This document shows, in pieces, positions 9,926 through 31,047 of a stretch of 35,479 bases of DNA (within the stretch, counting starts at the first letter, position 1; every line of letters starts with the position of its first letter). The notes beneath the pieces were generated by a model, which saw only the letters and a program-made list of their open reading frames with translations, did no database searches and was not told where the DNA came from. A program made the position numbers and the translations under genes. Source of the DNA: Gemmatimonadales bacterium (GTDB lineage Bacteria > Gemmatimonadota > Gemmatimonadetes > Gemmatimonadales > GWC2-71-9); NCBI GenBank assembly GCA_044221825.1, contig JBGAOL010000002.1, positions 1 to 35,479 of the forward strand, in the 5' to 3' direction.

Positions 9926-10597
9926 ATGACGGCCGTGGCCCTTCCCATCGTCACCGTGGACGAGCTGCTCCGCGCCCAGGGCGCCGATCCCGCGCGGCTC
10001 GGCGCCCGCCACGCCGCGCTCGCGGCCATCGCCGAGGAGGCGCTCGAGGCCGGGGCGGCGGCGGTAAGCCCGGGGGTGACGTGGAGCTGGCGGGAGGTGC
10101 GCGGGGTGCACCCGGGCCGGGTGCTGCTGGACGGGGCCGGCCCGCTCCGGCACGCGGCGCTGGCGGAGGGCCTGGCCGGCGCCAGCCGGGTGGCGGCGGC
10201 AGCGCTCACGCTCGGCCCGGGGCTGGAGCGGCTGGTGGTCTCGCACGTGATGGGGCGGCCGTCGCTGGCGCTGGCCCTCGACGCCTACGGATCCACGGTG
10301 CTGATGCGGCTCGGCACCGAGGCGCGGCAGGCCATCGCGGCGGAGGCGGCGGGGCACGGGCTGGCCATGGGCCCGTCGCTCTTCCCGGGGATGCCGGGCT
10401 GGCCGGTGGTGCCGGGCCAGGCCGAGCTGCTGGGCCTGCTGGACGCGCCGCCCGACGGGCTCACGCTCACCGAGCTCGGGATGCTGGTGCCGGGCAAGTC
10501 GCTCACGTTCCTGGTGGGCGCGGGGAGCGGCCTGGCGCCGGGGGGCGCCCCCTGCGACGGGTGCGAGGCGTCGCCGCGCTGCTCGCACCGCGCCTGA
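9926..10597 (+). CDS. Methionine-synthase activation-domain-like protein (Met_synt_B12-like)
   Basis: ATG at 9926, one nt after the MttB stop, gives 223 aa. The C-terminal block SLFPGMPGWPVVPGQAELLGLLDAPPDGLTLTELGMLVPGKSLTFLVG resembles the SPGY..W....Q..LF.LL......I.LTES.MM.P.KS signature of the MetH reactivation module. This assignment is from memory of the family pattern. Confidence 0.6.
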   Translation: MTAVALPIVTVDELLRAQGADPARLGARHAALAAIAEEALEAGAAAVSPGVTWSWREVRGVHPGRVLLDGAGPLRHAALAEGLAGASRVAAAALTLGPGLERLVVSHVMGRPSLALALDAYGSTVLMRLGTEARQAIAAEAAGHGLAMGPSLFPGMPGWPVVPGQAELLGLLDAPPDGLTLTELGMLVPGKSLTFLVGAGSGLAPGGAPCDGCEASPRCSHRA

Positions 10598-10598
10598 C

Positions 10599-12224
10599 AT
10601 GCCCGGCGCACCCCACCTGACGGTCGAGTTCCAGCCGCTCGGCCGGCGCGCCGCCGTGGCCCCGGGCCAGACGCTGCTCGACGCCGCGCGCGAGGGCGGC
10701 ATCGCGCTCACGGCCACCTGCGGGGGCGCCGGCTCCTGCGCCAGCTGCCGGGTGCGGCTGGTGCACGGCGCGCTCTCCCCCGTCACCGACCTCGAGATCC
10801 TGGCGCTCGACGCCGCCGAGCTCGCCGCCGGCGACCGGCTGGCCTGCCAGGCCCTGCCCGAGGGCAGCGTCCGCCTCCACTGCCCGCCCGACTCGCTCCG
10901 CACCAGCCAGCGGCTCCAGCTCGAGGCGCTGGGCGGCGCCGTGCCCGACGGCTCCATTCCTGCCCCGCCCGGCGCCCTCGGCCTGGCCGTGGACCTCGGC
11001 ACCACCAAGGTGGCGGCGTACCTCGTGGACCTGGCCACCGGCGCCGCGGTGGCCAGCCACGCCGCGCCGAACCCGCAGGTGGCCTGGGGCGAGGACGTGA
11101 TCAGCCGGGTGGCCTACGCCGGCCAGCACCCCGACGCGGCAGCGCGCCTGACACAGGCGGTGCGCGCGGCGATCGCGAGCCTGGCGGGCACCCTGTCGCG
11201 GCATGCCGGCGTCCCGCTCAGCGAGGTCCGCCGGATGGTGGTGGTGGGCAACACCGCCATGCACCACCTGCTCCTCGCCCTGCCGGTGACCCAGCTCGGG
11301 CTGGCCCCGTACGCCCCGGCCCACACCGACCCGCTCACCCTGACCGGCGACCCGCTCGCCACCGGCCTCCCGGCCGCCGCGGAGGTGGTGCTTCCGCCCG
11401 TGATCGCGGGCTTCGTCGGGAGCGATCACGTGGCGATGCTGCTCGCCGCCGGGCTCGACACGGCGCAGGACACCGTGCTGGCCGTGGACATCGGCACCAA
11501 CACCGAGCTGTCGCTGCTGCACCGAGGCGTGCTGCTCACCTGCTCCACGCCGTCGGGACCGGCGTTCGAGGGGGCGCACCTCTCCACCGGCATGCGCGCG
11601 GCGCCGGGCGCGGTGGAGGCGGTGCGCATCGCGGGGGACCAGCTCCACTGGCGGAGCGTGGACGACGCCCCGCCCATCGGGATCTGCGGGTCGGGCGTCG
11701 TGGACCTGATGGCGGAGCTGCTGCGGGCGCGGCTCCTCTCGGAGCGCGGGGCGCTGGTGGGGGAGCACCCGGCGCTCCGGCGCGGCGCGGGCGCCCCGGA
11801 ACTGGTGGTGGTGCCGGGGCGGGATACGGGGCATGGCCGCGACCTCACGGTGCAGCGGCGCGACCTGCACGAGATCGCGCTCGCCAAGGCGGCGATCCGG
11901 AGCGCCATCGACACGCTGCTGGCGCGCGCGGGACTCGACGCGCGCGCGGTGGACCGGGTGGTGGTGGCGGGGGCGTTCGGGAGCTACCTGGACCTGGGGA
12001 GCGCGGTGCGGATCGGGATGTTCCCGGCGCTGCCGCGGGAGCGGTTTGTGCAGGTGGGCAATGCGGCGGGGCTCGGCGCGCGGCAGGTGCTGGTGTCGCG
12101 GCGGCGTGAAGCCGACGGACTGGCGCTGGCGCGGCGGGCGGTGCACGTGGAGCTGGGCGCGGAGCCGGGATTCCGGGAGCGGTACCTCGACGCGCTCTGG
12201 TTGCCGATGCGGACGCGGGGGTGA
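10599..12224 (+). CDS. Reductive activator of corrinoid proteins (RACo/RamA-like): N-terminal 2Fe-2S ferredoxin plus ASKHA ATPase (DUF4445)
   Basis: 541 aa. A plant-type ferredoxin Cys pattern is present (TATCGGAGSCASCRV...LACQA). ASKHA phosphate motifs DLGTTKVAAY and AVDIGTNTE follow. The ATG lies 1 nt after the upstream stop. Confidence 0.85.
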   Translation: MPGAPHLTVEFQPLGRRAAVAPGQTLLDAAREGGIALTATCGGAGSCASCRVRLVHGALSPVTDLEILALDAAELAAGDRLACQALPEGSVRLHCPPDSLRTSQRLQLEALGGAVPDGSIPAPPGALGLAVDLGTTKVAAYLVDLATGAAVASHAAPNPQVAWGEDVISRVAYAGQHPDAAARLTQAVRAAIASLAGTLSRHAGVPLSEVRRMVVVGNTAMHHLLLALPVTQLGLAPYAPAHTDPLTLTGDPLATGLPAAAEVVLPPVIAGFVGSDHVAMLLAAGLDTAQDTVLAVDIGTNTELSLLHRGVLLTCSTPSGPAFEGAHLSTGMRAAPGAVEAVRIAGDQLHWRSVDDAPPIGICGSGVVDLMAELLRARLLSERGALVGEHPALRRGAGAPELVVVPGRDTGHGRDLTVQRRDLHEIALAKAAIRSAIDTLLARAGLDARAVDRVVVAGAFGSYLDLGSAVRIGMFPALPRERFVQVGNAAGLGARQVLVSRRREADGLALARRAVHVELGAEPGFRERYLDALWLPMRTRG

Positions 12225-12245
12225 GCGGCGGCGGCGCGCCGCGCC

Positions 12246-15002
12246 CTACTCCTTTGCGCCCGGCCGCGTGAGGCTCCGCAGCACGCTGAACCAGTTGGTG
12301 ACCACCGTCAGCTGCGTGGTGCCCGCCGGACCCGCCATCGGCGCCAGCAGGTAGAGCCGCTCGCCGTCGGCCGAGGCGGCGTACTCGTAACCGGCCACGT
12401 TGATCCAGTCCCCGCGGGCCAGCAGCTCGGGCTCGCCGGCCTCCAGCGTGGTGGTGCCGCCGATGCTGGCGCGCCACCACTCCTGCCCGAAACGCCACAC
12501 CAGCGCCCGCCCGCCCTGGATCCAGACCGGCTCCTCCCCGCCGTTGCGCGAGATGCGCCAGCGCCGTCCCGTCAGCGGCCACGGCTGGACGTAGATCTCG
12601 TCGGTCCCCGTCTCGCTCGACGAGTAGGCAATCCACCGGCCGTCGGGCGAGAAGGTCCCGCCCCACTCGAGCCCCGGCGAGGTGGCCACGGGCTGGCTCA
12701 CGTCGCCGCTGTCGTGGTCCACCACCACGAGGTCGGGGCCGGTGGAGTCGCCGATGACGTTCAAGGAGAAGTGCCGCCCGTCCGGTGACCAGTAGAGGCC
12801 CGAGCCCACGAAGGCCGAGCGAAGGACCAACAGTACGGTGGCATTCTCCCGGCCGCTGACCCCCTGGGCCATGAGCCGGTACTCGGTGTCCACGCGCAAC
12901 GGGTAGGTGACACGCCCGTCCGGGTGGAAGGCGGGGCAGCCCACGCCACCGCTGGTGGTGAGGGGGACGCGGGTGCCGCGGGCCAGGTCGTACACCCACA
13001 TGTTCCACAGCCCCGTCTCCGGGTCGGTGACGCGGGTGGCGAGGGACCGTCCGTCCGGGGAGATCGCCAGGCACCCGAAGGTGGCCGGCTCGAACGGCAG
13101 CGTGTCCACGCGCCCGCCGCGGCCGCGGACCACGAGGCGGCTCCGGTCATTGGTCCCGCCCGCCGCGTAGACCAGGAGCCCGCTCTGCGCGAAGGTGTAC
13201 TGGCCGGCGAGGGTGCCGGCCTCGAGCCGCAGGTGCGGCAGGACGGTCACCGGCTCCCCGGACACCTGGAGTGTGCCGAGGTCGAAGGGCACGGCCCAGA
13301 GCGCGCCGCGCAGCCAGTAGGTGAGGTACCCGGCCGGCACGTACCGCACGTCGGTGCCCCCGGACAGCACGCGTCGGGGCGCGGCGTCGCCGGGCAGGTA
13401 GAGGTTGCTGTCCGCCAGGATGCCGCGCCCGCCCGGCAGCGAGCGGTGCAGCCGCATCGCACGGTGCAGGTCCTCCCGGGCGCCGGTGGCCGGGTCGATG
13501 CGCACCAGCCGCCGTCCCTGGAGCTCGCTCAGGGTGATGCCGCCGTCGTCGGCCCAGTCCGCGGCGAAGAAGCTGTTGACGCGGGTGATGGGGACCGGCG
13601 GGCCGCTGACCCCCATCCGCACCTTGCTCAGCTGGTCGCGGGCATGGAAGGCCAGCCAGGCGCCGTCCGGCGAGAAGAACGGACAGCACGCGTCCTCGGT
13701 GCCCGGCAGCGCGATGACGCTGTCGCGATCCATGGGGCGGAGGAAGAGCTGGGTGCCCTCGCCCCGCTGCGCCACGTAGGCCAGGGTCCGGCCGTCGGGC
13801 GAGAGCGCCAGCGCCGTGCGGCCGATCCCGAGCGGCGCCTTGCCGACGAACGCCAGCGGCGCCGAGTCAGGCAGGACGACGGTCGAGGTCATGACCGCAC
13901 CGGCGTCCACCACCGGCGCCCGCCGGCTCCATCCCCACACCGCGGCGCCACCCGCCACCAGGAAGAGCACCCACGGCAGGGCCGCGGCCAGGCGGGCGCG
14001 CGGGGCCCCGGCTTCCCGCGCCGCGCGCGGATGGTGGGTCGTGGTGCCGGGGCGCGCCAGCGCCTCGGCGAACTGCGCCGCCGACGCGAAGCGGTCCGCC
14101 GGCAGCTTCTCCAGCGCGGTGAGCACCGCCGCCTCCACGTGCGGTGGCACCGTCTTCCGCTGCAGGGTGATCGCCCGCGGTTCCTCCGTCATCACGCGCG
14201 CCACGATGGCCTGCGCGGTGGAGCCCGTGAACGGGGGATCGCCCGTGAGCATCTCGTAGGTCATCACGCCGAGCGCGTAGACGTCGCTCCGCGCGGTGAT
14301 CTCCCGCTCCCCCATGGCCTGTTCCGGCGACATGTAGTGCGGCGTGCCGAGGCTCATGCCGGTCTCGGTCATGCGGCCGCCCCCGGTGCTCGAGGCGGCC
14401 AGCGCGATGCCGAAGTCGGCCACGAGGGCGCTGCCGTCGTGGAGCAGGATGTTCTCGGGCTTGATGTCGCGGTGGATCACGCCCTGGCGATGGGCGTAGT
14501 CGAGCGCCGACGCCACCTGGGTGGCGATGCGGACCGCGTCCTCCACCGGCAGCTGCTTCTCGCGCGTGAGGCGGTCCCGCAGGGTCTCGCCGTCCACGAA
14601 CGGCATAACGTAGAACACCGTCGCCTCCACCTGCCCCGAGTCGTGGAGCGGGAGGATGTGCGGGTGCTGCAGGTTGGCGGTGGTGCGGATCTCGTGCAAG
14701 AAGCGCTCGGCGCCGAGGATGGCGGCGAGCTCGGGGCGGAGGACCTTCACCGCCACCTTGCGGTGGTGACGCAGGTCTTCGGCGAGGAAGACGGTGGCCA
14801 TGCCACCCTGACCGAGCTCGCGCTCGAGGCGGTAGCGGTCGGCGAGGGCGGACGTCAGACGGTCGGGGGTGGCCGGCAGATGTGCCTCGAGCTGGTGGGG
14901 GGTATAAACCTCCAAGGTACGGTCCCAAGCGTCCTGCGGCCAGCCGAACAGGGCATACTTGCCCGAGCGGCACCGCGGTACCTGCCTGATCTCTCTCGTC
15001 AC
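12246..15002 (-). CDS. Receptor-type Ser/Thr protein kinase with TolB/PD40-like beta-propeller (paralog K2); start uncertain
   Basis: Kinase motifs GQGGMATV, VAVK, HRDIKPENILL, ADFGIA and YMSPEQ, a TM segment (LPWVLFLVAGGAAVWGW), SPDG repeats and the C-terminal VVTNWFSVL tail. The longest ORF starts with GTG at 15002. No ATG/GTG lies at the position where the paralogs start, just before PDRL. An alternative in-frame TTG is at 14915. Confidence 0.85.
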   Translation of the reverse strand: MTREIRQVPRCRSGKYALFGWPQDAWDRTLEVYTPHQLEAHLPATPDRLTSALADRYRLERELGQGGMATVFLAEDLRHHRKVAVKVLRPELAAILGAERFLHEIRTTANLQHPHILPLHDSGQVEATVFYVMPFVDGETLRDRLTREKQLPVEDAVRIATQVASALDYAHRQGVIHRDIKPENILLHDGSALVADFGIALAASSTGGGRMTETGMSLGTPHYMSPEQAMGEREITARSDVYALGVMTYEMLTGDPPFTGSTAQAIVARVMTEEPRAITLQRKTVPPHVEAAVLTALEKLPADRFASAAQFAEALARPGTTTHHPRAAREAGAPRARLAAALPWVLFLVAGGAAVWGWSRRAPVVDAGAVMTSTVVLPDSAPLAFVGKAPLGIGRTALALSPDGRTLAYVAQRGEGTQLFLRPMDRDSVIALPGTEDACCPFFSPDGAWLAFHARDQLSKVRMGVSGPPVPITRVNSFFAADWADDGGITLSELQGRRLVRIDPATGAREDLHRAMRLHRSLPGGRGILADSNLYLPGDAAPRRVLSGGTDVRYVPAGYLTYWLRGALWAVPFDLGTLQVSGEPVTVLPHLRLEAGTLAGQYTFAQSGLLVYAAGGTNDRSRLVVRGRGGRVDTLPFEPATFGCLAISPDGRSLATRVTDPETGLWNMWVYDLARGTRVPLTTSGGVGCPAFHPDGRVTYPLRVDTEYRLMAQGVSGRENATVLLVLRSAFVGSGLYWSPDGRHFSLNVIGDSTGPDLVVVDHDSGDVSQPVATSPGLEWGGTFSPDGRWIAYSSSETGTDEIYVQPWPLTGRRWRISRNGGEEPVWIQGGRALVWRFGQEWWRASIGGTTTLEAGEPELLARGDWINVAGYEYAASADGERLYLLAPMAGPAGTTQLTVVTNWFSVLRSLTRPGAKE
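14812..14850. repeat. 39-nt exact repeat (kinase 5' coding segment), left copy flanking the island
   Basis: ccgagctcgcgctcgaggcggtagcggtcggcgagggcg is identical at 14812-14850, 22779-22817 and 25664-25702, with one mismatch at 4947-4985. On the minus strand it encodes ALADRYRLERELG. Confidence 0.9.
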
Positions 15003-15045
15003 GTCAGGGAAGGCCGCGGGGCCGTTCCTAGTCGCGACTCTCGAC

Positions 15046-15351
15046 TCACCTTAACACATCATACCTCTTCCACTCGGGAAGGTGTACGGCCATCATCGCC
15101 TTGAACAACTTGCCGTGGTTCGGCACCCGCAAGTGCAGGAGTTCATGCAGGATCACAAAATCCTGAAAGTCCCCAGATTTACGACAGAGATCATCCGCGA
15201 GGGTGAGCACACCGGTGGTTGAACAGGACCCCCACTTCCGGGTCATCCGCTGAACTCGCACGATTCGCGGGCTGGCCCGAAGGCGCCTAGACCAGCGATC
15301 AACCTTTCGGCGGAGCCGGGCTCGACAGTTGCTACGCTTCGGCATCCGCAT
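15046..15351 (-). CDS. Short DUF45/M48-like (YgjP/SprT-type) HExxH metal-dependent hydrolase
   Basis: The C-terminal part of ORF 15046-15588 reads [18 protein letters not shown]...[19 protein letters not shown], the WGSC...HELxHL...NH signature of DUF45. The likely start is ATG at 15351 or 15345, overlapping the hsdR stop by 14-20 nt. The upstream 79 codons lie inside hsdR in another frame and are Arg/Ser-rich. Confidence 0.6.
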
Positions 15352-18283
15352 CACCGGCGAGAAGGATCGCGAGGACGAGATCGACGACGCGGCCCCGCTC
15401 GTCCTTGTCGAGTCTGAGGAGAGGGCGATACAGCGCGGCACGCAGCCGGCGCTGTTCCTCCGCATTGACCCGGGCGTTCGGGAAGCGGGCCAGCTCCGTC
15501 TCCCCCTGGCGTGCCAGGTCCATGGCGCTGATTCCGGCTTTCCCGAATGCCGGATCGTCCTTGAGCGCCCAGTAAACGCCGAATGCACGCGGCGAGAGGC
15601 CGCTGTCCTTCTCCGCCTTCAGCGCCGCCTCCTTTTCCCGGGCCAGCGCCTCGATGACGTCCATCGCTGCCAGGCCGGTGGTCGTGCGGTTCTCCAGATC
15701 CTTGAGGATCCGTTCGGCCCGCTCCCGAAGGGACTGCAGGATCGGGGCGGACTCCGGCGCCGCATTCATCTCAGCCCCAAGTCCGCGAACGAGATTGAAA
15801 ACCTTCCCCTCGTCCGACCCCGGGTCTCCCCGGAGCTTCTCCAGGGTCTTGACGTCGAAGGTGACCGACCGCACCCCCTCCCCCAGCCCGTACTGGATCA
15901 CGCTCTCCTTCACGAGCTGCCCGGTCTTGTAGGCCAGGTCGGCAGCGTAGCCGCCTCGATCAGTGTAGGCATTGCGGACAGCGGCATACAACTGCGCCAG
16001 TCGCTTGAATGCGGTGATGTGATCCCGCAATGCCGGTGACGGCGACAGGATTTCCCACAGCGATTCAAGCTCCTTGTAGGCCTCGAAGAAGGCCTTCCGT
16101 GCCTCGGGATCGAGAAATCGACCATAAACGATCGCCTCAAGCTGCTCGTCGAGCCCGCCCTTCGCTTCTGCCTGGAGATAGTCGGTCTTCGCCCGTTCGA
16201 GCCTCGCCAGCAGGTCCTTGAACATCAGGTCGAGGTCCTCGATGACGCCGCTGACATCGGAGCTGTCGAACTGCAAAGCCTTCTTGAGCTCCCGGAGGAC
16301 ACCCACGAAATCGACCACCAGGCCGACCTTCTTCTGCACCCCATTGGCGTCGATGTAGGGCCGGTTCACCCGAGCGATCGCCTGCAGCAGGACGTGGTCC
16401 CGCATCGGCTTGTCGAGATACATGCAGTACAGCACCGGGGCGTCGTAGCCGGTGAGCAGCTTGTCCGTGACGATCAGGATCTTCGGATCCTCGCCCGGCT
16501 TCCGGAACAGCCGCCGCACGTCGGTCTCGCGCTCCTCCGAGAGCTGCACCTCGGCCACCAGCGGGCGCTCGATGATGTCGTTGGGGTTGTCGGTGTAGAC
16601 CGCCTCCGACCACTTCGGCGGCAACAGCTCGTCCAGGGCGCGCTTGTACTTTGCGCAGGCCTCACGGTTCACGCCCACCAGGAACGCCTTGAGCCCGAGC
16701 GGCTGCACCTTTTCCCGGAAGTGTTCGGCAACGAACGCCGCGACCTTTGCGATCCGGTCGTCTGCCGTGAGGAAGGTGCGCAGGCCGACCGCCCGGTCGA
16801 GCACCCGGTTCAGCTCGTCGATATCAGTTACCCCTTCGGCCTCGGCGAGCTGGAAGAACTCACGGTCCAGCCGCTCGGCGGGCACCGTCATCTCGCTCGG
16901 CGCCATGGTGTGCCGGATCGGCAGGGTGGTCTCGTCCTCGATCGACTCGCGGATCGAGTACTTGTCGAGGTACCCCTGCTTGTCATCGGCGCCGAAGATC
17001 TTGAAGGTGCCTTCTCCCTGCGCCGTGCGCGCGATCGGCGTGCCCGTGAAGCCGAGGATGGTCGCATTGGGCACGGCGGCCATCATGTAGCTGCCGAGGT
17101 CCCGGGCCACCGAGCGGTGGGCTTCGTCGATGAAGACGTAGATGTTGTCTCGGGTATTGGCGTTCTTGTCGATCCCCTCGAACTTGTGGATCATCGAGAG
17201 GATCAGGCCGCGCTTGTCGGTCTGGAGCAGCTCCTGCACCTCGGCGCGGGAGCCGGCGCGCCACACCGGGATGTCCTGCTGCTGCATCTCCCCCAGCAGC
17301 TTCTCGACCCAGCCCTTGAGCTGGCCCTCGAGCTCGGTGCGGTCCACCACCAGGATCACGGTCCCGTTCCTGAACCTGGCCTTGTCTTCCAGGACCATCC
17401 GCGCCGCGGTCAGCAGGGTGAAGGTCTTGCCCGAGCCCTGGGTGTGCCAGATCAGTCCTCGCTTCCTGCCCGGGTCCGCGCAGCGCTCGACGATCTTGTC
17501 GATGGCGACGCGCTGATGCTGCCGCAAGACGGACTTCCGGGTCTCCCCATCCTCCACGTAGAACAGGATCCAGTGCTGCAGGGTGCGCAGGAAGTCGGTC
17601 GGCTCGAAGAAGGCCTGGACCGCGAAGCGGTAGCTTTCCTCCCGCTGCTGCTTCCATCGCGCCATGTACCGGCGGTTGGCGTTCCAGGTGACGCCGTACC
17701 AGTAGTCCAGCAGGTGGGTGACGTTGAAGAGCTGGGGCGAACCGATCAGCTCCGGGGTCTCCAGCTCGTAACGCCGAAGCTGGGTCACGGCCCGGTCGAT
17801 GGCGCTGCCGTCCTTGGGGTTCTTGTGCTCGACGATGCAGACCGGCACCCCGTTGACCCGGAACATCACGTCCGCCCGGTTTCCTTTGCGGGCCGGCGGC
17901 TTGAGCTTCCACTCCCAGGTGACGTGGTAGACATTCTCTCCCGGCCGCTCGAAGTCGATGAGCTGCACCCGTCGGTCGCGCTGCTCCCCCTCGTCGTACC
18001 ACTGCCGCTCGCCCCGCAGCCAGGAGAGCATGGTGCGGTTCCCCTCGATGGTCGGGGGGATGGCCTCCAGCTTCTCGATCACCTGGCGGATCGTCTCCGC
18101 CGGCATCCACTCATTGAACCGGGCCAGCGCCGCCTCGAGCTCGTCGCGGAACAGCATGCCGGCCTCGCCGCCCCGCTTCTGCTGGGCGATCTCCGGCGGA
18201 AGCGGTGTCCACCCGATGCCGGCGGCATGCGCCACCATCGGGAACTGGACCGAGCCTGCCTCGGTGATGGTGAGCTGACTCAT
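15332..18283 (-). CDS. hsdR: Type I restriction enzyme, R (endonuclease/translocase) subunit
   Basis: 983 aa. It has an N-terminal PD-(D/E)xK-like block ([18 protein letters not shown]), SF2 helicase motif I (TQGSGKTFT), motif II (FIDEAHRS) and a C-terminal HsdR-type helical domain. Its ATG overlaps the hsdS stop (ATGA at 18280-18283). Confidence 0.95.
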
Positions 18284-19584
18284 GCCGGGGCCTCAGCCAG
18301 CGGGGCGGCCTCGAGCGCCGAGAGGTCGAGGTCGGCGGCCCGGAGCTCGCCGGTCATCAGCTTGTGAAGCAGCGCCTTGAAGAGGTCGTCGAGGATGATG
18401 CGCTTCCTACGGTGAAGTGTGATCTTGCGGTCGATTGCTTCGAGAATGTCCACAATCTCCATCTGCTCCTTTACGTCGGCCGGGAACGCGATTGGGATCC
18501 CGCGGACAATGTCGAGATTCAAGTTCTGCTGCTGACCACCGTGCGCAAGCTGGCGAATGTCTTCGTAGCGATACGCCAGGAACTGGTAGAGATAGCGCCC
18601 CTCAACCGACCCGTCGGTTGGCCGAATCGCCGCGCACGCTTGATTGCAGGCTGCCGGGACCCCGAGTAGCGCCACCTTTCCTCGAGTGACACCTTGGCCA
18701 TACATGGCCATGAGGAGTGTCCCGATCGGAAGGAGTTTGGCCGCCGATCCAGCAAGGCCGGCCTCTGTGATGTGCTCCTCCGTGTCCTCGATAACGCAGT
18801 AATCCACCTCCGAGGTCTTGACCCAAGGGATGTAGCCGCCCTCCCAGTAGGCCGGATTGCCACGCGCGGGGGTGCCTCCTGAGACAACTGAATGGTGCTC
18901 GCCAAGCGAGGCTACCTTCCAACTTGCTGGCAGCGCCCCGATGTCCGAGTCGTTCCGCGCCTCGCCCCGCAGCCCGCGGCTGAAGAGCGCCTGCATCACA
19001 GCCCGCTTGAGGTCTTGGGCCACTGCGGCGGCTTTCGTCTGGATGCTCGAGGCCTTTTGGATGGCTTCGAGGACGTTCGCGCACGCGGTTTGCTCATGTG
19101 GTGAGAGATCAGGGATCGGGAGGTCGAGCAAGACACTTTCCGGAACCCGCTGCCTTCCGGTTGAGCCCTCCATCCGCTCAGCCACATGGTGTCTTACATC
19201 CGGATGGAGGAGGTAGAAGAACAGAAGCCTGGGGTCATAGCCGGGTTGCCGAGCATGCAGGGGAATAACTTCCGTTGTTCCGTAAGCAAACGAGCCCGGC
19301 AACTCGCTCGCCAACGCTTGCTTCCCATTCTCAAAGGACGGGGTGATCTTCGCGACGAGGATGTCACCCTTTTCGAAGTATGTGCCGCTCGAAATCGCAT
19401 CCGGTCGCCGCATCGTGTAGACGGGTGCATAGGAGCCATCCTGTGGGATCGCTTCCATGGCGGCAAACGGGATTTCGGTGAACGTCGAGCGGTTGAGACC
19501 TCGCGGTGCCTTGGTGACCTCGTAGGCGTCACCGACTCGAATCCACGGTCGCCCCTGTTGGAGGACTGCTTCAAGCAGGTTCAT
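18280..19584 (-). CDS. hsdS: Type I R-M specificity subunit with two target-recognition domains
   Basis: 434 aa. Two TRD-like halves are each followed by a conserved helical spacer (...[39 protein letters not shown]... and ...[40 protein letters not shown]). It sits between hsdM and hsdR with overlapping ends. Confidence 0.9.
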
Positions 19585-21412
19585 CGCTCACTCCGCTCAG
19601 CATCTGGGAGATCGTGGCGGAGAGAGAGCTGGCATCTGCATCAAGCCTGCCCATCTCTCGGAGCAATGCGCCCACTGAGCCGACTTCCGCGGTGCTGGAT
19701 TGTCCCACCCACCGGCTGGGACTCAGGTTGTAATCCTCGTTCGCGGCCTGCTCCCGCGTAATGACCGCGATCTCCCCCTCGACTTCCTCCCCTTTGATGT
19801 AGGCGGCTGCCAGAGGACGGATGGCATCCTCGGGAATGAAGTTCTTCGGCCGCCCCTTCTGCACCCGCTTCGACGCGTTCAGCAGGACGATCTTGCCCTT
19901 CCGCGCCGCCGGCTTCCGGCGCGACAGCACCACGATCACCCCGGCCGCGGTGGTGTTGTAGAACAGGTTGTCCGGCAGCAGGATCACGCCGTCGATCAGG
20001 TCGCGGTCCACGAACCACTTCCGGATGTTCCGCTCCCGGTCCTCGTTTCTGGAGCCGGAGCCCCGGGTCACCGCGCCGGTGTCGAGCACCACCGCCGCCC
20101 GCCCCCGCTCTTGGCGAGGCAGGCCAGGTGTGCTGCAGCGCCAGGCCCAGTCACCCTTGCCGGTGGTCACCCCGCCCTGGCCGGTGAAGCGGTCGAAGGG
20201 GTCATCGGCCAGGAGATCCGGGTTGAACGGCTGGTTCCACATCGGATTGGCCACCACCACATCGTAGGTGCGGATCCGGCTGTCGGCGGTTTTGAACTTG
20301 GGGTTGATCATGGTGTCGCCCCGGGCCATCTCCACGGTCATGTCGTGGATGATGGCATTCATCTTGGCCACCGCGTAGCTCTCGGCCGTGAGCTCCTGAC
20401 CGTAGAGCTTGAGCGGCACTTTGCTGGTGGGGTCCAGCTCCCGCGCCACGAGCTGGAGCTTGACCAGGAGCCCCGCCGAGCCGCAGGCGTAGTCGTGGCA
20501 CTCCTCGCCGGGCCTCGGGCGCATGATGTGCGCCATCAGGAAGCCGACCTCGGTTGGCGTGAAGAACTCGCCGGCACTCTGCCCCGAGCCTTCGGCGAAT
20601 TTCCTGAGGAGGTACTCGTAGGCCCGGCCGAGGAAGTCGGGCTGCACGTCGGCCAGGCCGAGGCGGTAGCGGGGATCGGAGAAGGTTTCCACGACCTCCC
20701 GGAGCTTGGCCGGATTGATGTCCCGCTCGCCATTCCGCTCGGCACCGAAGTCCACCACATCGATGACGCCGGAGAGGGACGGGTTCTGGCGGACCACCGC
20801 CCGCACCGCCCTGGTCAGGTGCTCACCGATGTCCTTCGGGCGGGTGCTCCGGCCCTGATCGTCGCTGGGCCAGTCGTACGACGTGCGCCCGTTGATGACG
20901 CCCCATCGGGCTTCCCGCGGGAGGTAGAAGCGGAGAAGGCCGTGATCCTCCTCGGCGATTTCCAGCGCGGTCTCCCGACTGCCATATTCCTCTGCCAGGC
21001 GCTCGATCTCGTCATCGAAGACGTCCGACAGCCGCTTGAGGAAGAGGAGGGGAAGCAGGTAGTCCTTGAACTTCGCCGCGTCCTTTTCTCCCCGGATGGA
21101 ACACGCGGCGTCCCAGAGCATCTGCTCCATGGGTTTGGTGGATGGCGCGCTGGTTGGACCCTTCGCCCGCCGCCGTGTTACCTGCGCCGCTGCCTGGCTT
21201 GAGTCTGCCCTTTCATTTCCGTCAATGCCGGCTTCCAGCGCCAGTGCAGCAATGGCGGTCAGTGCGGCCTTCTGCGGTTTGGTCAGCCCGCCCTCCCAGC
21301 GATTGACAGTCGCGAAGGAAACGCCGAGGCGCTCTGCCAGCTTTTCCTGGCTGAGGTTGAGGCTTGCCCGGATCGCCTGCAGGGTTGCAGATACATCAAT
21401 TGATTTAGTCAT
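19571..21412 (-). CDS. hsdM: Type I R-M N6-adenine DNA methyltransferase subunit with N-terminal XRE-type HTH extension
   Basis: 613 aa. The N-terminus [23 protein letters not shown] is a helix-turn-helix. It is followed by an HsdM_N-like block ([35 protein letters not shown]), an AdoMet motif ([11 protein letters not shown]), the catalytic NPMW (NPPY/F/W-type) motif and [17 protein letters not shown]...[10 protein letters not shown]. Confidence 0.9.
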
Positions 21413-21418
21413 GTATGA

Positions 21419-21433
21419 TATATACGCTATATA
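21419..21433. promoter_or_regulatory. TATATA-cgc-TATATA element immediately upstream of hsdM (possible -10 / leaderless-type promoter)
   Basis: tatata (21419-21424) and tatata (21428-21433) lie 7-21 nt from the hsdM ATG (21412). No Shine-Dalgarno sequence is visible between them and the start. Confidence 0.25.
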
Positions 21434-21475
21434 ACAAAATACTGCAATAGCTGTATTATGAGACGAAATCTTGAA

Positions 21476-21551
21476 TAAACCAAACTATGATTATTCCATA
21501 GTTTGGTTTAGCTTGTAAACCAAACTATGGAGCTCCATAAGTTTGGTTTAC
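21476..21551. promoter_or_regulatory. Two tandem palindromic operator-like sites sharing the half-site AAACCAAACTATG
   Basis: O1 is taaaccaaactatg (21476-21489), a 7-nt spacer, then catagtttggttta (21497-21510), a perfect 14-bp inverted repeat. O2 is gtaaaccaaactatgg (21515-21530), 4 nt, then ccataagtttggtttac (21535-21551), the same arms with one extra A. They are located in the divergent hsdM/Fic intergenic region. Confidence 0.7.
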
Positions 21552-21568
21552 TGCTGATAGGGAGGCGC

Positions 21569-22768
21569 ATGCCTGGCCATACAGTTCACAGGATCTGGCA
21601 GAGCAATCCCGTCCTTGATGCACCGGCCAAATACCGGAAGGCCTGCGGCTACGAGCCCTTCATCCCGGATCTGCTGGGCGGACTCCAGCTGCACCTGCCG
21701 GGGGATGTGGCGGGCCTGATTACCGAGGCGGAGGCGGCGATTCGAGGCCTGAATGCTCCCGGCAAGAATGCCCTGCGCCCTTTGGCCCGGCTGCTATTGC
21801 GTACCGAATCCATCGCCTCCTCCAAGGTGGAGGGCATGCAGATGGGGGTGCGTGAGCTCGCGCGTGCCGAGGCGAAGATGGAAGCGGGTGGAAAAGGGAG
21901 CCAGACCGCGATCGAGATCCTCGACAACGTCAACGCCATGGAAATCGCAATCGCCGAGGCGGCCAGAACGGAGCAGTGCGAACCGGCCGCCATCCTGGCG
22001 ATTCACGGACGCCTGATGGCGCACGACCGGCGCGCGGATATCGCGGGCCGGTTCCGGACCGAGCAGAACTGGATCGGGGGTAACGACTACAACCCTTGCG
22101 GTGCGGACTTTGTGCCGCCGCCGCCAGAGGAGGTGCCTCATCTTCTCGATGATCTTTGCGCCGCCATCAATAGAGATGAACTCCCTGCTCTGGTGCAGGC
22201 GGCGCTGGTGCACGCCCAGTTCGAGACCATCCATCCATTCGCGGATGGTAACGGGCGGACGGGGCGCGCCCTCATTCACGTGATCCTGAAGCGTCGAGGG
22301 GTTGCCCCAGCGTATGTGCCGCCGATCAGCGTCATCCTTGCCGGGGCAAAGGATCGGTACATCGAGGGGCTGACCCGATTTCGGCAGAGCGAAGAGGGGG
22401 CGCTGGCGTGGATCGAGCAATTTGCCGGCGCAGCGGCCCGATCAGCGACACTGGCTCAGAGGTATCTCGAGGAAGTGCAGCAGCTCCAGACGGAGTGGCG
22501 GGAGCGCTTGCGGCGAGTCGGGGAACCCAGAACCGATGCGGCCGCCTGGGCAGTCATCGATGTGCTGCCTGCCCATCCGGTGATCACCGCGCCGGTCGCG
22601 GCAGCGGCGACTGGTCGTTCTAAGGCACCGATCTACGAGGCGCTCATCCAGCTACAGGAAGCCAGGGTGCTCAGGCCGTTGTCTGAATCGAAGAGAAATC
22701 AATCGTGGGAGTCGGAGGGAATGCTGAACCTCATTGCCGGGTTGGAGTCAGGTACGATGCCAGCCTGA
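21569..22768 (+). CDS. Fic/DOC-family protein (probable AMPylase) with Fic_N inhibitory helix and C-terminal wHTH-like tail
   Basis: Canonical Fic motif HPFADGNGRTGRALI. The N-terminal SxxxEG inhibitory motif is present (IASSKVEGM). The preferred start is ATG 21569, preceded by AGGGAGG at 21559-21565. The track's upstream ATG at 21527 lies inside operator O2 and has no SD. Confidence 0.85.
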   Translation: MPGHTVHRIWQSNPVLDAPAKYRKACGYEPFIPDLLGGLQLHLPGDVAGLITEAEAAIRGLNAPGKNALRPLARLLLRTESIASSKVEGMQMGVRELARAEAKMEAGGKGSQTAIEILDNVNAMEIAIAEAARTEQCEPAAILAIHGRLMAHDRRADIAGRFRTEQNWIGGNDYNPCGADFVPPPPEEVPHLLDDLCAAINRDELPALVQAALVHAQFETIHPFADGNGRTGRALIHVILKRRGVAPAYVPPISVILAGAKDRYIEGLTRFRQSEEGALAWIEQFAGAAARSATLAQRYLEEVQQLQTEWRERLRRVGEPRTDAAAWAVIDVLPAHPVITAPVAAAATGRSKAPIYEALIQLQEARVLRPLSESKRNQSWESEGMLNLIAGLESGTMPA

Positions 22769-22846
22769 CCGCGACTGCCCGAGCTCGCGCTCGAGGCGGT
22801 AGCGGTCGGCGAGGGCGCCGGCCAGACGGTCCGGAATGCCGCTCAC
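22748..22846 (-). pseudogene. 5' remnant of a Ser/Thr kinase paralog (first 24 codons only)
   Basis: GTG at 22846 opens VSGIPDRLAGALADRYRLERELGQ, matching the N-termini of the intact paralogs. The reading then runs into unrelated SRSGWHRT* overlapping the Fic 3' end. The GTG overlaps the stop of the upstream kinase (GTGA at 22843-22846), as at the intact junctions. Confidence 0.75.
22779..22817. repeat. 39-nt exact repeat (kinase 5' coding segment), right copy flanking the island
   Basis: Identical to 14812-14850 and 25664-25702. Confidence 0.9.
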
Positions 22847-25728
22847 GGCCTGCCCTCCAGGTCCCCGACCGCCGCCAGCTCGGCACGGACGCTGTCGCGC
22901 TGCGGGATGCGGGACAGCTCCGGGTCCACCCGCATGCGCAGGTAGCCCCGGTAGGCGCGGATGGCGCCGGCCCGGTCTCCCGCTGCCGCCGCCAGCTGGC
23001 CCTCGAGCCGGAGCGACTCGGCGAGCCCCATCGGCTTGGGATAACCCACCGAGCTGTAGCGCCGGCGCACGGCGCGGAGCGCGCGGTCGATGCGCCCCTC
23101 GGCCTGGTAGAGCCGGGCGAGCTGGATCGACGCCCAGTCGGCATTGCCCTCGCGGCCCACCCACATGGAGTCGGCGACATCCAGGAGGCGGGGCGCCGCC
23201 GGGTCACGGCGCTGGACGGCGATGATGGCCTCCGTGAGTGGCACCATGCGAATCCAGAACCCCTGCGTCGAGTCCTTGGCCGCCCGCTCCTTCTGGAACG
23301 CGAGGACCCGCGGCCCGACGCTCAAGTCCCCCCGGACAAGCCGGGTGAAATCCAGGAGATCGGGGCTCAGGCGCGTGCTGTCGAGGGGAGGGCCGCCATA
23401 GTAGGTGGCCATGAGCCACGGATAGACCGGGTTCGGGTCCATGGTGCGAAGCGTGTCCAGCCACCGGGCGGCCTCCGCGGGCCGGCCCCGGTTGAGCAGG
23501 ACGTACGCGCGGGAGAGCGCCATCTCGTGCCGCTCCCCCCGGGAGGCGGCCTGGGCGTGGAACAGCTCCAGCAGCTCCGGCTGGCGCACGATGGTGAGGC
23601 TGTCGAGCGGATTCTGGAAGAGGATGCCCTGCACCGCGTCGACCGGCTGGTCCTTGAGCGCAACCAGGAACCGCCGCAGCCCGACGGTGTCGCGCGTCGC
23701 CGAGAGCAGGTCCCAGCGGGCGAGCGCCACCGTCTCGGCCGTGGAATCGAGCGCCACCGCCCGCTCGGTCCAGAGGCGTTGCGCCGCGGTGTCTCCCGCG
23801 ACGAAGGCCACCCGCGCCATGTGCGCGATGGGGCTGCCGTACAGCGAATCGAGCCGGAACGCCCGCTCGAAGGCCTGCCGCGCCCGCAGCTCGGGGTCGG
23901 TGATGTCGGAAAGGCGTCCGGCATGGAACAGCGCATCGGCCAGGTAGTGCCACGCCTCGGCGCTCTCCGGAATCGACTGCACCGCGCGTTCCGCGTCCGC
24001 GATCTTGTCGGTCCACGGCGTCTGGCGCGGGTAGCGGGACCCCTGGCGCAGCGTCAGGAAGAGCTGGTCCTGCGGGTTGAGCCGACCCCGGTACTGCCAG
24101 GCGAGCCGGTTGACGCGCAGCATGTCCACGGTCGCCGGGTGCCAGCCATCGGATTCGATCAGCGCCGACAGTGCCAGCGCAAAGGTGGAATCGAGCTGGA
24201 TCGCGCGCTCGAAGGCGGGCGTCGAGAGCTGGAAGGCGCCCCGGCGGAAGGCGGCCATCCCGTCGAGATACGCCCGGAGCGCCTCGAGGCTGGTGGTGGT
24301 CAGGGCGCTCACCTGCGACGCCTGCGCCCCGGCACCGAGGGCCAGCAGTTGCGCGGTGAGGCGGTCCACCATCACGAAGAGCGAATCCTTGGGCCCGTTC
24401 ACGCTCGCCTGCGCGAGCACGCGGCCGCCCGGCATCTCCTGCAGCGTCGCGGCGATCACCAGCTGGCCGGCCGGACCCACGATGCTGCCCTGCAGCACGC
24501 GGCCCGCGCCGATCTTCCGCGCCACGCGATCAACGCCCTCGGCCGGCAGGTCGTCATCGGCGCCACCGGCATCCCGCACGGCGGCCAGCACCGAGCGGGT
24601 GTCGGCGGAGCGCGGTCCGCCCTCGCCGGTGAGCTTGGCCTGCAGCAGGTCCACCATGCCCTGGCGCAGGTACTGGACGCTCGGATCCGCGCCCGCCACG
24701 CGAAACGGCAGCACGGCGACGAGGTGCGGATCGAGCTCACGGCCGCCCCGTGCCCACGGCCGCCACACGCCGAGGGCCACCGCCACCACCAGTCCCAGCG
24801 CCCCGGCGATCGTGGCGATGCGCGTCCCCCGCCCGCTGGCCGGGCCGGCGGCCACCGGCCGGGTGCTCGTCGGGGTCATCCCGCCGCTCGGCGTCGCCAG
24901 CGGCTCGAGCGCGGCGCCGAGCTCCTCGGCGGTCTGGAAGCGGTCGGCCGGACGCTTGGCGAGGCAGCGCATGATGGCCGTCTCGAGCGCCGGCGCGAGC
25001 CCCGCCCGCTGCTGGCCCACGGGCGTGGGCTCCTTCATCACGTGCGCCGCGAGCATCTGCTGCGGGTTCAGCCCGTGGAAGGGTGGGAAGCCCGTGAGCA
25101 TCTCGTAGCCCATCACGCCGAGGGCGTAGATGTCCACGCGGGCGTCCATCTGCGGGTCGGCCGAGGCCTGCTCGGGGGCCATGTAGGTGGGGGTGCCGAG
25201 GGCCACGCCGGCGGTGGTGAGCTGCTGGCGGCCGGACGCCTCGGTCACCGCCTTGGCGATGCCGAAGTCCATCACCAGCGCGTGGCGCCCCGAGAGCAGG
25301 ATGTTCTCCGGCTTGATGTCGCGGTGGACCACGCCGGCGTGGTGCGCCACGGCGAGCGCCTCGGCGATCTCGCCGAGCAGGCGCACGGCGTCGGGCACGG
25401 GGAGCTCGCCGGTGCGCGTGAGGCGGTCGCGCAGGGTCTCGCCCTCGACGTAGGGCATCACGTAGTAGAAGAAGCCCTGCGCCTCGCCGGAATCGAGCAC
25501 GCCGAGGATGTGGGGATGCTGCAGCCGCGCGGCCACCTCGATTTCGCGCAGGAAGCGGTCCGAGCCGAGCGTGGCCGCGAGGTCGGGCCGGAGCACCTTG
25601 AGCGCCACCTTGCGGTGATGCTTCAGGTCCTCGGCCAGGTAGACGGTGGCCATGCCACCCTGGCCGAGCTCGCGCTCGAGGCGGTAGCGGTCGGCGAGGG
25701 CGTCGCGGAGGCGGTCGTTCAGGGTCAT
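22843..25728 (-). CDS. Receptor-type Ser/Thr protein kinase with extracytoplasmic VAVLPF-type domain and TPR-like repeats (paralog K3)
   Basis: ATG at 25728 (MTLNDRLRDALADRYRLERELGQGGMATVYL) gives 961 aa. Kinase motifs are HRDIKPENILL, MDFGIAKA and YMAPEQ. The TM segment is IATIAGALGLVVAVALGVW. VAVLPFRVAG and multiple TPR-like helical pairs follow (e.g. AEAWHYLADALFHAGR, RAYVLLNRGRPAEAARWLD, ARLYQAEGRIDRALRAV). The 178 upstream codons of ORF 22843-26262 overlap K4 out of frame. Confidence 0.85.
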   Translation of the reverse strand: MTLNDRLRDALADRYRLERELGQGGMATVYLAEDLKHHRKVALKVLRPDLAATLGSDRFLREIEVAARLQHPHILGVLDSGEAQGFFYYVMPYVEGETLRDRLTRTGELPVPDAVRLLGEIAEALAVAHHAGVVHRDIKPENILLSGRHALVMDFGIAKAVTEASGRQQLTTAGVALGTPTYMAPEQASADPQMDARVDIYALGVMGYEMLTGFPPFHGLNPQQMLAAHVMKEPTPVGQQRAGLAPALETAIMRCLAKRPADRFQTAEELGAALEPLATPSGGMTPTSTRPVAAGPASGRGTRIATIAGALGLVVAVALGVWRPWARGGRELDPHLVAVLPFRVAGADPSVQYLRQGMVDLLQAKLTGEGGPRSADTRSVLAAVRDAGGADDDLPAEGVDRVARKIGAGRVLQGSIVGPAGQLVIAATLQEMPGGRVLAQASVNGPKDSLFVMVDRLTAQLLALGAGAQASQVSALTTTSLEALRAYLDGMAAFRRGAFQLSTPAFERAIQLDSTFALALSALIESDGWHPATVDMLRVNRLAWQYRGRLNPQDQLFLTLRQGSRYPRQTPWTDKIADAERAVQSIPESAEAWHYLADALFHAGRLSDITDPELRARQAFERAFRLDSLYGSPIAHMARVAFVAGDTAAQRLWTERAVALDSTAETVALARWDLLSATRDTVGLRRFLVALKDQPVDAVQGILFQNPLDSLTIVRQPELLELFHAQAASRGERHEMALSRAYVLLNRGRPAEAARWLDTLRTMDPNPVYPWLMATYYGGPPLDSTRLSPDLLDFTRLVRGDLSVGPRVLAFQKERAAKDSTQGFWIRMVPLTEAIIAVQRRDPAAPRLLDVADSMWVGREGNADWASIQLARLYQAEGRIDRALRAVRRRYSSVGYPKPMGLAESLRLEGQLAAAAGDRAGAIRAYRGYLRMRVDPELSRIPQRDSVRAELAAVGDLEGRP

Positions 25729-28394: not shown

Positions 28395-31047
<2,653 letters not shown>

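Follow-up and report, generated by a model that had tools for sequence, protein, structure and literature searches.

We analyzed a 35,479-nt stretch of DNA (here, the window) from contig JBGAOL010000002.1 of a Gemmatimonadales bacterium from wastewater/activated sludge (assembly GCA_044221825.1). The GC content of the window is 74%. Ser/Thr kinase genes are arrayed in tandem on its minus strand with a repeat period of ~2.66 kb, and adjacent genes of the array overlap via GTGA or ATGA. Pfam assigns a kinase plus PD40 propeller architecture to K1, K2, and K4 to K7 and kinase and TPR domains to K3. Between K3 (22843 to 25740, minus strand) and K2 (12246 to 14879, minus strand; Pfam Pkinase and the beta-propeller domain PD40), of which K3 is the upstream neighbor in the array, lies an island of lower GC content that encodes a type I restriction-modification (R-M) system and a Fic protein. 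Comparison with related contigs shows that this island is inserted into the 5′ end of K2, with exact limits; a 24-codon K2 stub remains coupled to K3, and K2 itself is intact but re-headed.

The insert is bracketed by 39-bp direct repeats of kinase 5′ coding sequence. The left copy (14812 to 14850) comprises codons ALADRYRLERELG of K2, the right copy (22779 to 22817) is exactly identical to it, and a third identical 39-mer lies in K3 (25664 to 25702); the exact match extends no further on either side. Other paralogs carry the segment with one mismatch (K1, at 4943) or four (K4 and K6, each). The K2 stub (22748 to 22846, minus strand) consists of 24 native codons, eight unrelated read-through codons, and a stop at 22750 to 22748. 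Its GTG start (22846 to 22844, minus strand) overlaps the K3 stop as GTGA and opens VSGIPDRLAGALADRYRLERELGQ, and its end overlaps the last Fic codons in antisense, Fic being convergent with the stub and the kinase array. Read along the minus strand, the order on the stub side is the end of K3, GTGA, head codons, 39-mer, G-CAG, TCGCGG, and TCA (the reversed Fic stop), and the order on the K2 side is the ygjP stop, a 151-nt leader, CAGCTCGAGGCACATCTGCCGGCCACCCCCGACCGTCTGACGTCC, 39-mer, T-CAG, and the rest of K2. The coordinates of the repeats, the GTGA-coupled 24-codon stub, and the Fic stop given in a first-pass annotation all proved correct on re-reading, as did its caveat that the 39-mer is also present in K3: identity of the repeats by itself does not go beyond paralog conservation. 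Taken alone it is unremarkable, because K3 has the same 39-mer, K1 is off by one, and the corresponding community k-mers reach depths of 50 to 760×. It is the set of empty sites described next that lifts the observation above chance.

Alignment recovered four independent metagenomic contigs from four ENA samples (L001, L168, L169, and L170; k141 contigs) in which the site is empty. All four are 99.0 to 99.2% identical to window positions 30195 to 22775 and then resume at 14846 (98.2 to 100%). The two alignments of these contigs to the window, which for L001 both cover the left repeat, overlap by exactly 39 nt, and one repeat copy is present. The K3 stop there overlaps the start of an intact K2, reading VSGVPGRLAEALADRYRLERELGQGGMATVFLAEDL... 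/ VSGVPGRLAEALADRYRLERELGQGGMATVF..., and the window has 7,967 bp more than the empty sites, made up of 7,928 unique bp and one repeat copy. The first-pass proposals that the island entered the 5′ end of a kinase gene and that the remnant is a native kinase 5′ end are both borne out, by the kind of comparison with island-free relatives that the annotation had suggested as a check; the stub is the native head of K2 itself, because the empty-site contigs continue the same start into full K2. Array membership varies, and L168 has an extra kinase after K2, so one might take the stub for the remains of a separate array member lost by deletion, with K2 an independent gene. That explanation is refuted by a stub start that runs unbroken into K2 in all four contigs and by skipped sequence that corresponds exactly to the island and a single copy of the repeat. 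Beyond cultivated model species, pairs of occupied and empty sites this similar (99% identity) and with exact junctions are seldom available.

The insertion did not simply interrupt K2. From the repeat onward, K2 is 99.3 to 100% identical to its empty-site counterparts without gaps, and it is without its GTG start and its coupling to K3. In place of the native VSG.P.RLA. head, it is now joined to an island-borne kinase-like head (14851 to 14894, minus strand; ..QLEAHLPATPDRLTS) that is missing from the empty sites. This head reads ...LPATPDRLTS-ALADRYRLERELG and belongs to an imperfect repeat of ~62 bp, in which the stub copy matches the empty-site target at 53/62 positions, the K2-side copy matches the target at 49/62, and the two copies match each other at 54/62. 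Both copies share the rare GACCGTCTG, and the empty site matches the 39-mer at 37/39. Because the island-side head differs from the target head (49/62), it entered with the island. Ahead of the new head, a foreign leader of GC content 0.65 (14895 to 15045, minus strand) separates it from ygjP; including the kinase-like head at its end, the leader measures 195 nt. We found no homolog of the leader in the K3 3′ end, in any fetched locus, or in any protein. A degenerate K3 3′ end was ruled out as its source (the local alignment score falls below the shuffle mean), and a protein search with the leader peptide matches only its kinase part.

Candidate new starts for K2, as read from the sequence, are CTG at 14879 (with GAGG five nt upstream), TTG at 14915, and GTG at 15002. 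The hsd operon now precedes K2 on the same strand, no terminator is predicted between the two, and an RNA-derived contig spans 14939 to 15227, from the end of ygjP into the leader; for these reasons read-through expression of K2 is plausible. The case illustrates how an operon member can be uncoupled from its neighbor and put under foreign control.

The island (14851 to 22778) has a GC content of 0.64 against 0.74 for the host, and GC content at third codon positions is 0.68 to 0.89 in its genes against 0.94 to 0.96 in host and flanking genes. The lower-GC block of the first-pass annotation is confirmed (64% versus 74%), and the contrast in both measures points to a foreign origin. On the minus strand, the cargo comprises hsdM (19571 to 21412; N-terminal XRE-type helix-turn-helix [HTH]; Pfam N6_Mtase, HsdM_N, and HTH_3; PADLOC MTase_I, 5e-141), the specificity subunit hsdS (18280 to 19584; Pfam Methylase_S; PADLOC Specificity_I, 1e-109), the full-length restriction subunit hsdR (15332 to 18283; Pfam HSDR_N, SWI2_SNF2, and T1R_D3; PADLOC REase_I, 3e-89), and a short ygjP-like metallopeptidase open reading frame (ORF; 15046 to 15330) with an HELLH motif that covers positions 112 to 200 of Pfam model PF01863. 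By Pfam and PADLOC the type I system is complete, with HsdR, HsdM, and HsdS all intact and co-oriented, and by homology it is predicted to restrict unmethylated DNA. Diverging from hsdM across an AT-rich control region (21413 to 21568; 35% GC) with promoter-like sites on both strands is the Fic/DOC gene (21569 to 22768, plus strand; Pfam Fic and Fic_N), which is SoFic-like and carries the HPFADGNGRTGR motif. It matches the PADLOC SoFic model PDLC03963 at 2e-74 over model positions 5 to 358 of 361, relatives of 399 aa exist, and homology suggests an AMPylating abortive-infection toxin. For the Escherichia coli homolog, a small downstream antitoxin (AS1) has been described (PMC12249575); here the Fic stop lies 10 nt from the junction, so an AS1-like downstream ORF is not possible.

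Those 10 nt (22769 to 22778; CCGCGACTGC on the plus strand) are the last of the island and are shared with a related island discussed below. A weak hint in the first-pass annotation that the stub continues in degenerate form into the last Fic codons did not hold up. The TGGCAT similarity exists (15/17 nt), but it is Fic coding sequence, because the Fic C terminus is itself conserved (MPA-stop in the window and in L004, TPA-stop in L005). We also rejected a 7-nt repeat, CGCGACT, at both module ends as a short target duplication; it is not significant, with 20% of random windows sharing a 7-mer.

The hsdM(HTH)-hsdS-hsdR-short ygjP cassette is widespread and conserved, and we found it at 80 metagenome loci (L088 to L167), with protein identities of 72 to 82% for HsdM (residues 1 to 613) and 70 to 82% for HsdR (residues 1 to 983). 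HsdM always has the N-terminal XRE-type HTH domain in these cassettes, and the YgjP-like ORF of the family is 90 to 95 aa long and matches only the C-terminal half of the Pfam model. The ORF is therefore not a truncation scar, the short form being conserved across the family; because it follows hsdR in most of the 80 cassettes whose contig extends beyond hsdR, it appears to be a native companion of hsdR. DNA homology to the 80 loci is confined within 15091 to 21436, and no kinases lie nearby. Fic homologs are common in Gemmatimonadota, Actinomycetota, and Chloroflexota. Among 80 GTDB and 30 viral loci with Fic homologs (≤66% identity), we found no R-M or kinase neighbors, no vector or integrase, and, in the 30 viral loci, no close relative of the window Fic. 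An exact look-up with the window Fic ORF, like one with K3, gave no match; gene starts differ in databases.

How the island arrived is less certain than where it lies. Pfam searches of all large ORFs found no integrase, transposase, or other mobility gene in the window, in agreement with the first-pass annotation on the missing integrase, and with no transposase present the island does not belong among transposons or insertion sequences. The best explanation, to which we assign a probability of about 0.6, is integrase-free insertion by host recombination across the conserved multicopy kinase 5′ segment. A horizontally acquired 7.9-kb defense island, bringing its own diverged kinase head and a foreign leader ahead of that head, would have recombined into the first 24 codons of K2, with the crossover inside the 39 bp that are identical in both heads. 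The host homologous-recombination machinery would have acted on the ALADRYRLERELG coding segment with no element-encoded recombinase; a circular form could have integrated by one crossover, or the island could have been transferred from a strain that already carried it. The expected products would be a 24-codon stub still coupled to K3 and a K2 otherwise untouched with a new head, and the same repeats would permit precise loss. We infer both the recombination route and the reversibility of the island. Host recombination is favored because there is no recombinase, the island has its own homologous head, the crossover falls in the longest tract of identity, a related island is joined to another kinase at a different codon, and the insert has the features of a published class of R-M insertions. 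The first-pass annotation had offered homologous recombination through paralog conservation as a caveat to its own preferred interpretation, and this caveat is now the better reading.

That preferred interpretation was an element with attL/attR sites targeting the 5′ end of a gene. Integrase-mediated islands at gene ends, and their integrase-less derivatives, the cis-mobilizable elements (CIMEs) flanked by attL/attR, usually target the 3′ end. In its explicit form, a tyrosine or serine recombinase would have integrated the island site-specifically at the kinase head, and the 39 bp would be the att core of a non-autonomous, CIME-like element that has lost its integrase or relies on one in trans. 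The locus resembles CIMEs in its identical core between divergent arms, in a replacement gene end that keeps the target intact, and in the possibility of precise excision, for which a candidate product exists in a metatranscriptome contig (X13, below). It differs in lacking an integrase in cis, in its 5′-end target, in a related copy that is joined at a different codon, and in that the public-run contigs, which break in the 39-mer, yielded no circular form. The bracketing of the insert by kinase 5′ repeats stands, but the att reading of them is only partly supported, given the absence of an integrase from the window, the island, and L005; the junction at codon 44 in L005; and a kinase association that is absent from the 80 related hsd cassettes, the 80 GTDB Fic loci, and the 30 viral loci. 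The proposed core also occurs in K3 and, with 1 to 4 mismatches, in other paralogs that carry no insertion. We consider site-specific integration unlikely, though the strongest of the competing explanations.

The related island comes from two NCBI metagenome assemblies (L005 and L006). It is decayed, with hsdS and hsdM gone, hsdR in fragments, and ygjP and Fic kept (Fic identity, 84% aa and 82% nt); in L005 (1 to 3113) and L006, the hsdR fragments are fused in frame to ygjP, Fic is intact, and host GC content is ~70%. Its neighbor, oriented as in the window, is the head of another kinase in a separate genomic context. That head is coupled (TGATG) to a TPR gene and is broken after codon 44 (...DRQVAIK, just past the VAIK lysine), as opposed to codon 24 in the window. 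On the other side of L005, a phosphofructokinase-like start lies 15 nt past ygjP; there is no second head, and no integrase was found in L005. Homology between L005 and the window extends past the Fic stop up to 22779, through the shared final nucleotides GC(A/G)GTCGCG(T)G.

Several points weigh against host recombination as the route. Integrase-mediated integration classically leaves the same picture, an identical core between divergent arms plus a replacement gene end, and an integrase acting in trans is possible. The islands of the window and L005 end at the same nucleotides past the Fic stop; this shared right end, conserved 6 to 11 nt beyond the stop, is like a defined element end and is poorly explained by homologous recombination, which keeps the integrase-in-trans alternative alive. 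A length of 39 bp is near the lower limit for efficient RecA-dependent recombination. Nor is the stub-side arm, with its fine mosaic, reproduced by one crossover into an empty-site (E-type) sequence. The metatranscriptome contig that suggests loss of the island may itself be a chimera of the k=31 graph at the repeat, and linkage across the 39-mer in the island-bearing genome comes from the window assembly only; contigs from public runs break there.

Those contigs (Logan, k=31) all stop in the 39-mer and are too short to link or phase the flanks of the repeat. Independent activated-sludge and bioreactor runs hold the island at ~100% identity; the right junction (Fic into the repeat) is present in X1 and X6, and the left junction (repeat, leader, and ygjP into hsdR) in X10. 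In community k-mers the 39-mer has a depth of 50 to 760× against 4 to 7× for the island, making it ~100 times more abundant and implying many landing sites. In X10, where 39-mer k-mers reach ~760× and the island 7×, the contrast indicates that the kinase-head sequence is common to very many genes or organisms in the bioreactor community.

This abundance, along with the lack of any independent k=31 contig that crosses the 39-mer, gives some room to an assembly chimera, in which the island sits in another 39-mer-bearing kinase paralog and was misjoined to K3 and K2. An RNA contig linking the window-type patch (described below) directly to K2 would fit as well. A 39-bp repeat is, however, far shorter than reads and modern assembler k-mers, two coordinated in-frame misjoins would be required, and the unitig depths of island, K2, and K3 match within runs; we regard such a chimera as very unlikely. 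The RNA contig, from metatranscriptome X13, joins 14811 to 22779, skipping 7,967 nt and sharing 39 nt with zero mismatches. It includes the window-type patch, and the same sample also holds island sequences. The contig fits an island-free form on the allelic background of the window and hints at precise loss. We favor a real contig over a graph chimera, since reads covering the patch-core boundary on an island template would mostly reach the Fic side too, although this is not proof. A further contig recurs in X2, X3, and X11 to X13 (depth, 4.6 to 10); it joins the ygjP-like HELLH part (~15150 to 15171) to a kinase core through a 19-nt linker (ATTGAGCGCGGTGG(CC/TT)TTG), with the kinase head core starting at offset 12, and possibly represents a further junction between a stub and ygjP.

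The stub-side arm contains a mosaic patch (22814 to 22858, minus strand) that covers the last K3 codons and stub codons 1 to 11. It has 12 differences in 45 nt from all four empty-site contigs, over a background of 0.6%. Of the nine differences in the 33 nt beside the repeat, seven, among them the rare CGT in GACCGTCTG, agree with the island-borne head. The other two are unique, as are the three that fall at the end of K3, which makes five unique positions among the 12, and at least three switches occur along the patch. These at least three switches and five unique changes rule out a single gene-conversion tract from the island-side head as the source, and the patch is unexplained by a simple crossover or one conversion tract. 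Both patch alleles occur in public runs. The patch allele and the island may segregate separately: X3 holds the island at ~4× and only an E-type patch contig, beside a window-like K3 body, and X13 suggests an island-free site of the window type (R-type).

The patch bears on another route, a break-associated illegitimate insertion, as has been proposed for R-M complexes, that would have created the duplication de novo in another strain or allele with a K2 head similar to today's repeat copies, after which the copies diverged and the block spread into the present background by homologous recombination in its flanks. Such an origin would account for repeat copies that are closer to each other (54/62, with the rare GACCGTCTG) than to the empty site (53/62 and 49/62) and for a patch restricted to the repeat region, and events of this kind have been documented among type I systems (PMC2853133). 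Against it, the arms that precede the core are only ~63% alike while the core is perfect, which is unlike the uniform divergence expected of a duplication, and the patch allele seems not to be strictly linked to the island (X13 and X3). We judge this route improbable, more so than site-specific integration, and retain host recombination across the kinase head as the preferred explanation.

R-M gene complexes inserted with long target duplication were reportedly described by Nobusato et al. in 2000. The island is a well-documented case of an integrase-free R-M insertion with long direct repeats, a known but poorly understood class. Judged by the criteria of Furuta, Abe and Kobayashi 2010 (PMC2853133) for R-M "insertion with long target duplication," the insert contains R and M genes, is below 20 kb, and is absent from 99%-identical genomes, its repeat exceeds 30 bp and aligns to one empty-site copy, and no mobility genes are linked to it. 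It is like members of that class in being short, in its >30-bp direct repeats, and in its lower or different base composition; some members are type I systems, one of which has additional genes within its operon, and the repeats have been proposed to permit amplification and release (PMC2853133). Published repeats are near-identical to their target (e.g., 45/46) and unique in the genome, whereas here 39 bp are perfect and the arms match at 53/62 and 49/62. The island also departs from published inserts in that its repeat is the conserved head of a multicopy paralogous family, its host belongs to the phylum Gemmatimonadota, and its target gene was rebuilt with a foreign head and leader rather than destroyed.

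Two other comparisons are instructive. In core defense hotspots such as cDHS1 and cDHS2 of Pseudomonas aeruginosa, defense systems lie between conserved host genes and without mobile-element scars, as here, and transfer by homologous recombination through the flanks has been proposed (PMC10250203); the island differs in lying inside a gene, bounded by a duplicated piece of that gene, as a single event in one strain lineage and not a hotspot of variable content. With respect to type I R-M and SoFic references (PADLOC model; PMC12249575), it has the three Hsd subunits (HsdR, HsdM, and HsdS) and a SoFic-like Fic in common with them, all full length and the Fic with its catalytic motif, and is set apart by the HTH on hsdM, the short ygjP after hsdR, and the lack of room for an AS1-like ORF. 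The spread of defense systems without mobile-element genes is an open practical question, and in this instance a type I R-M and SoFic island of an uncultivated phylum entered a gene that was not destroyed by it, at a site whose sequence occurs many times in each genome.

A broader possibility, which we put forward tentatively, is that the kinase head serves as a portable, integrase-free attachment site through which defense or toxin-antitoxin cargo with a captured head enters, leaves, and hops from one kinase gene to any other, making the arrays a phylum-wide landing pad. Host recombination would re-head each target kinase and leave coupled stubs. The Ser/Thr kinase head is present in dozens of copies per genome in Gemmatimonadota, and stubs occur in the window, in L005/L006, and twice in L171, along with many short kinase-head or stub-like ORFs in the protein collection. 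In L171, two stubs of 47 and 49 codons flank toxin-antitoxin-like cargo, with a full kinase beyond them. Should it be the repeated kinase head that makes such events possible, paralog arrays would be predictable insertion sites for accessory DNA.

Both L171 stubs (10001 to 15137) are broken near the VAIK lysine, and interleaved with them are small ORFs that include a DUF6036 nucleotidyltransferase whose stop overlaps the start of the second stub, a TPR gene, a VapB-PIN pair, and an aminotransferase. One 81-aa protein, P0246, from an ENA contig of 697 nt, contains two tandem kinase heads in one ORF (..ALADRYVIERELAYGGMA.. then ..VADRYEIHRELGQGGMATVYLAEDL..) and could likewise have arisen by head-to-head recombination.

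K3 relatives carry the annotation Gemmatimonadales, and orthologs are widespread there, with 60 to 78% identity in many contigs; the ortholog search also gave a cluster of near-identical sequences, and a GTDB scan with the K3 C terminus returned no relative. K3 orthologs (P0001 to P0120) have hypervariable final 2 to 4 residues after a conserved GDLEG, at the position that coincides with the overlap onto the ribosome-binding site and start of the next kinase gene. Elsewhere in the array, L168 (7947 to 10988) has an extra 982-aa kinase gene between K2 and a RACo gene, which the window is without (12213 to 12259); its presence in a 99%-identical strain indicates that array copy number varies between near-identical strains. 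Finally, the kinase domain of K4 (27690 to 28023) has 13 substitutions relative to L001 in ~330 nt, against a background of 0.6%, a cluster that resembles a recombination or paralog-conversion tract.

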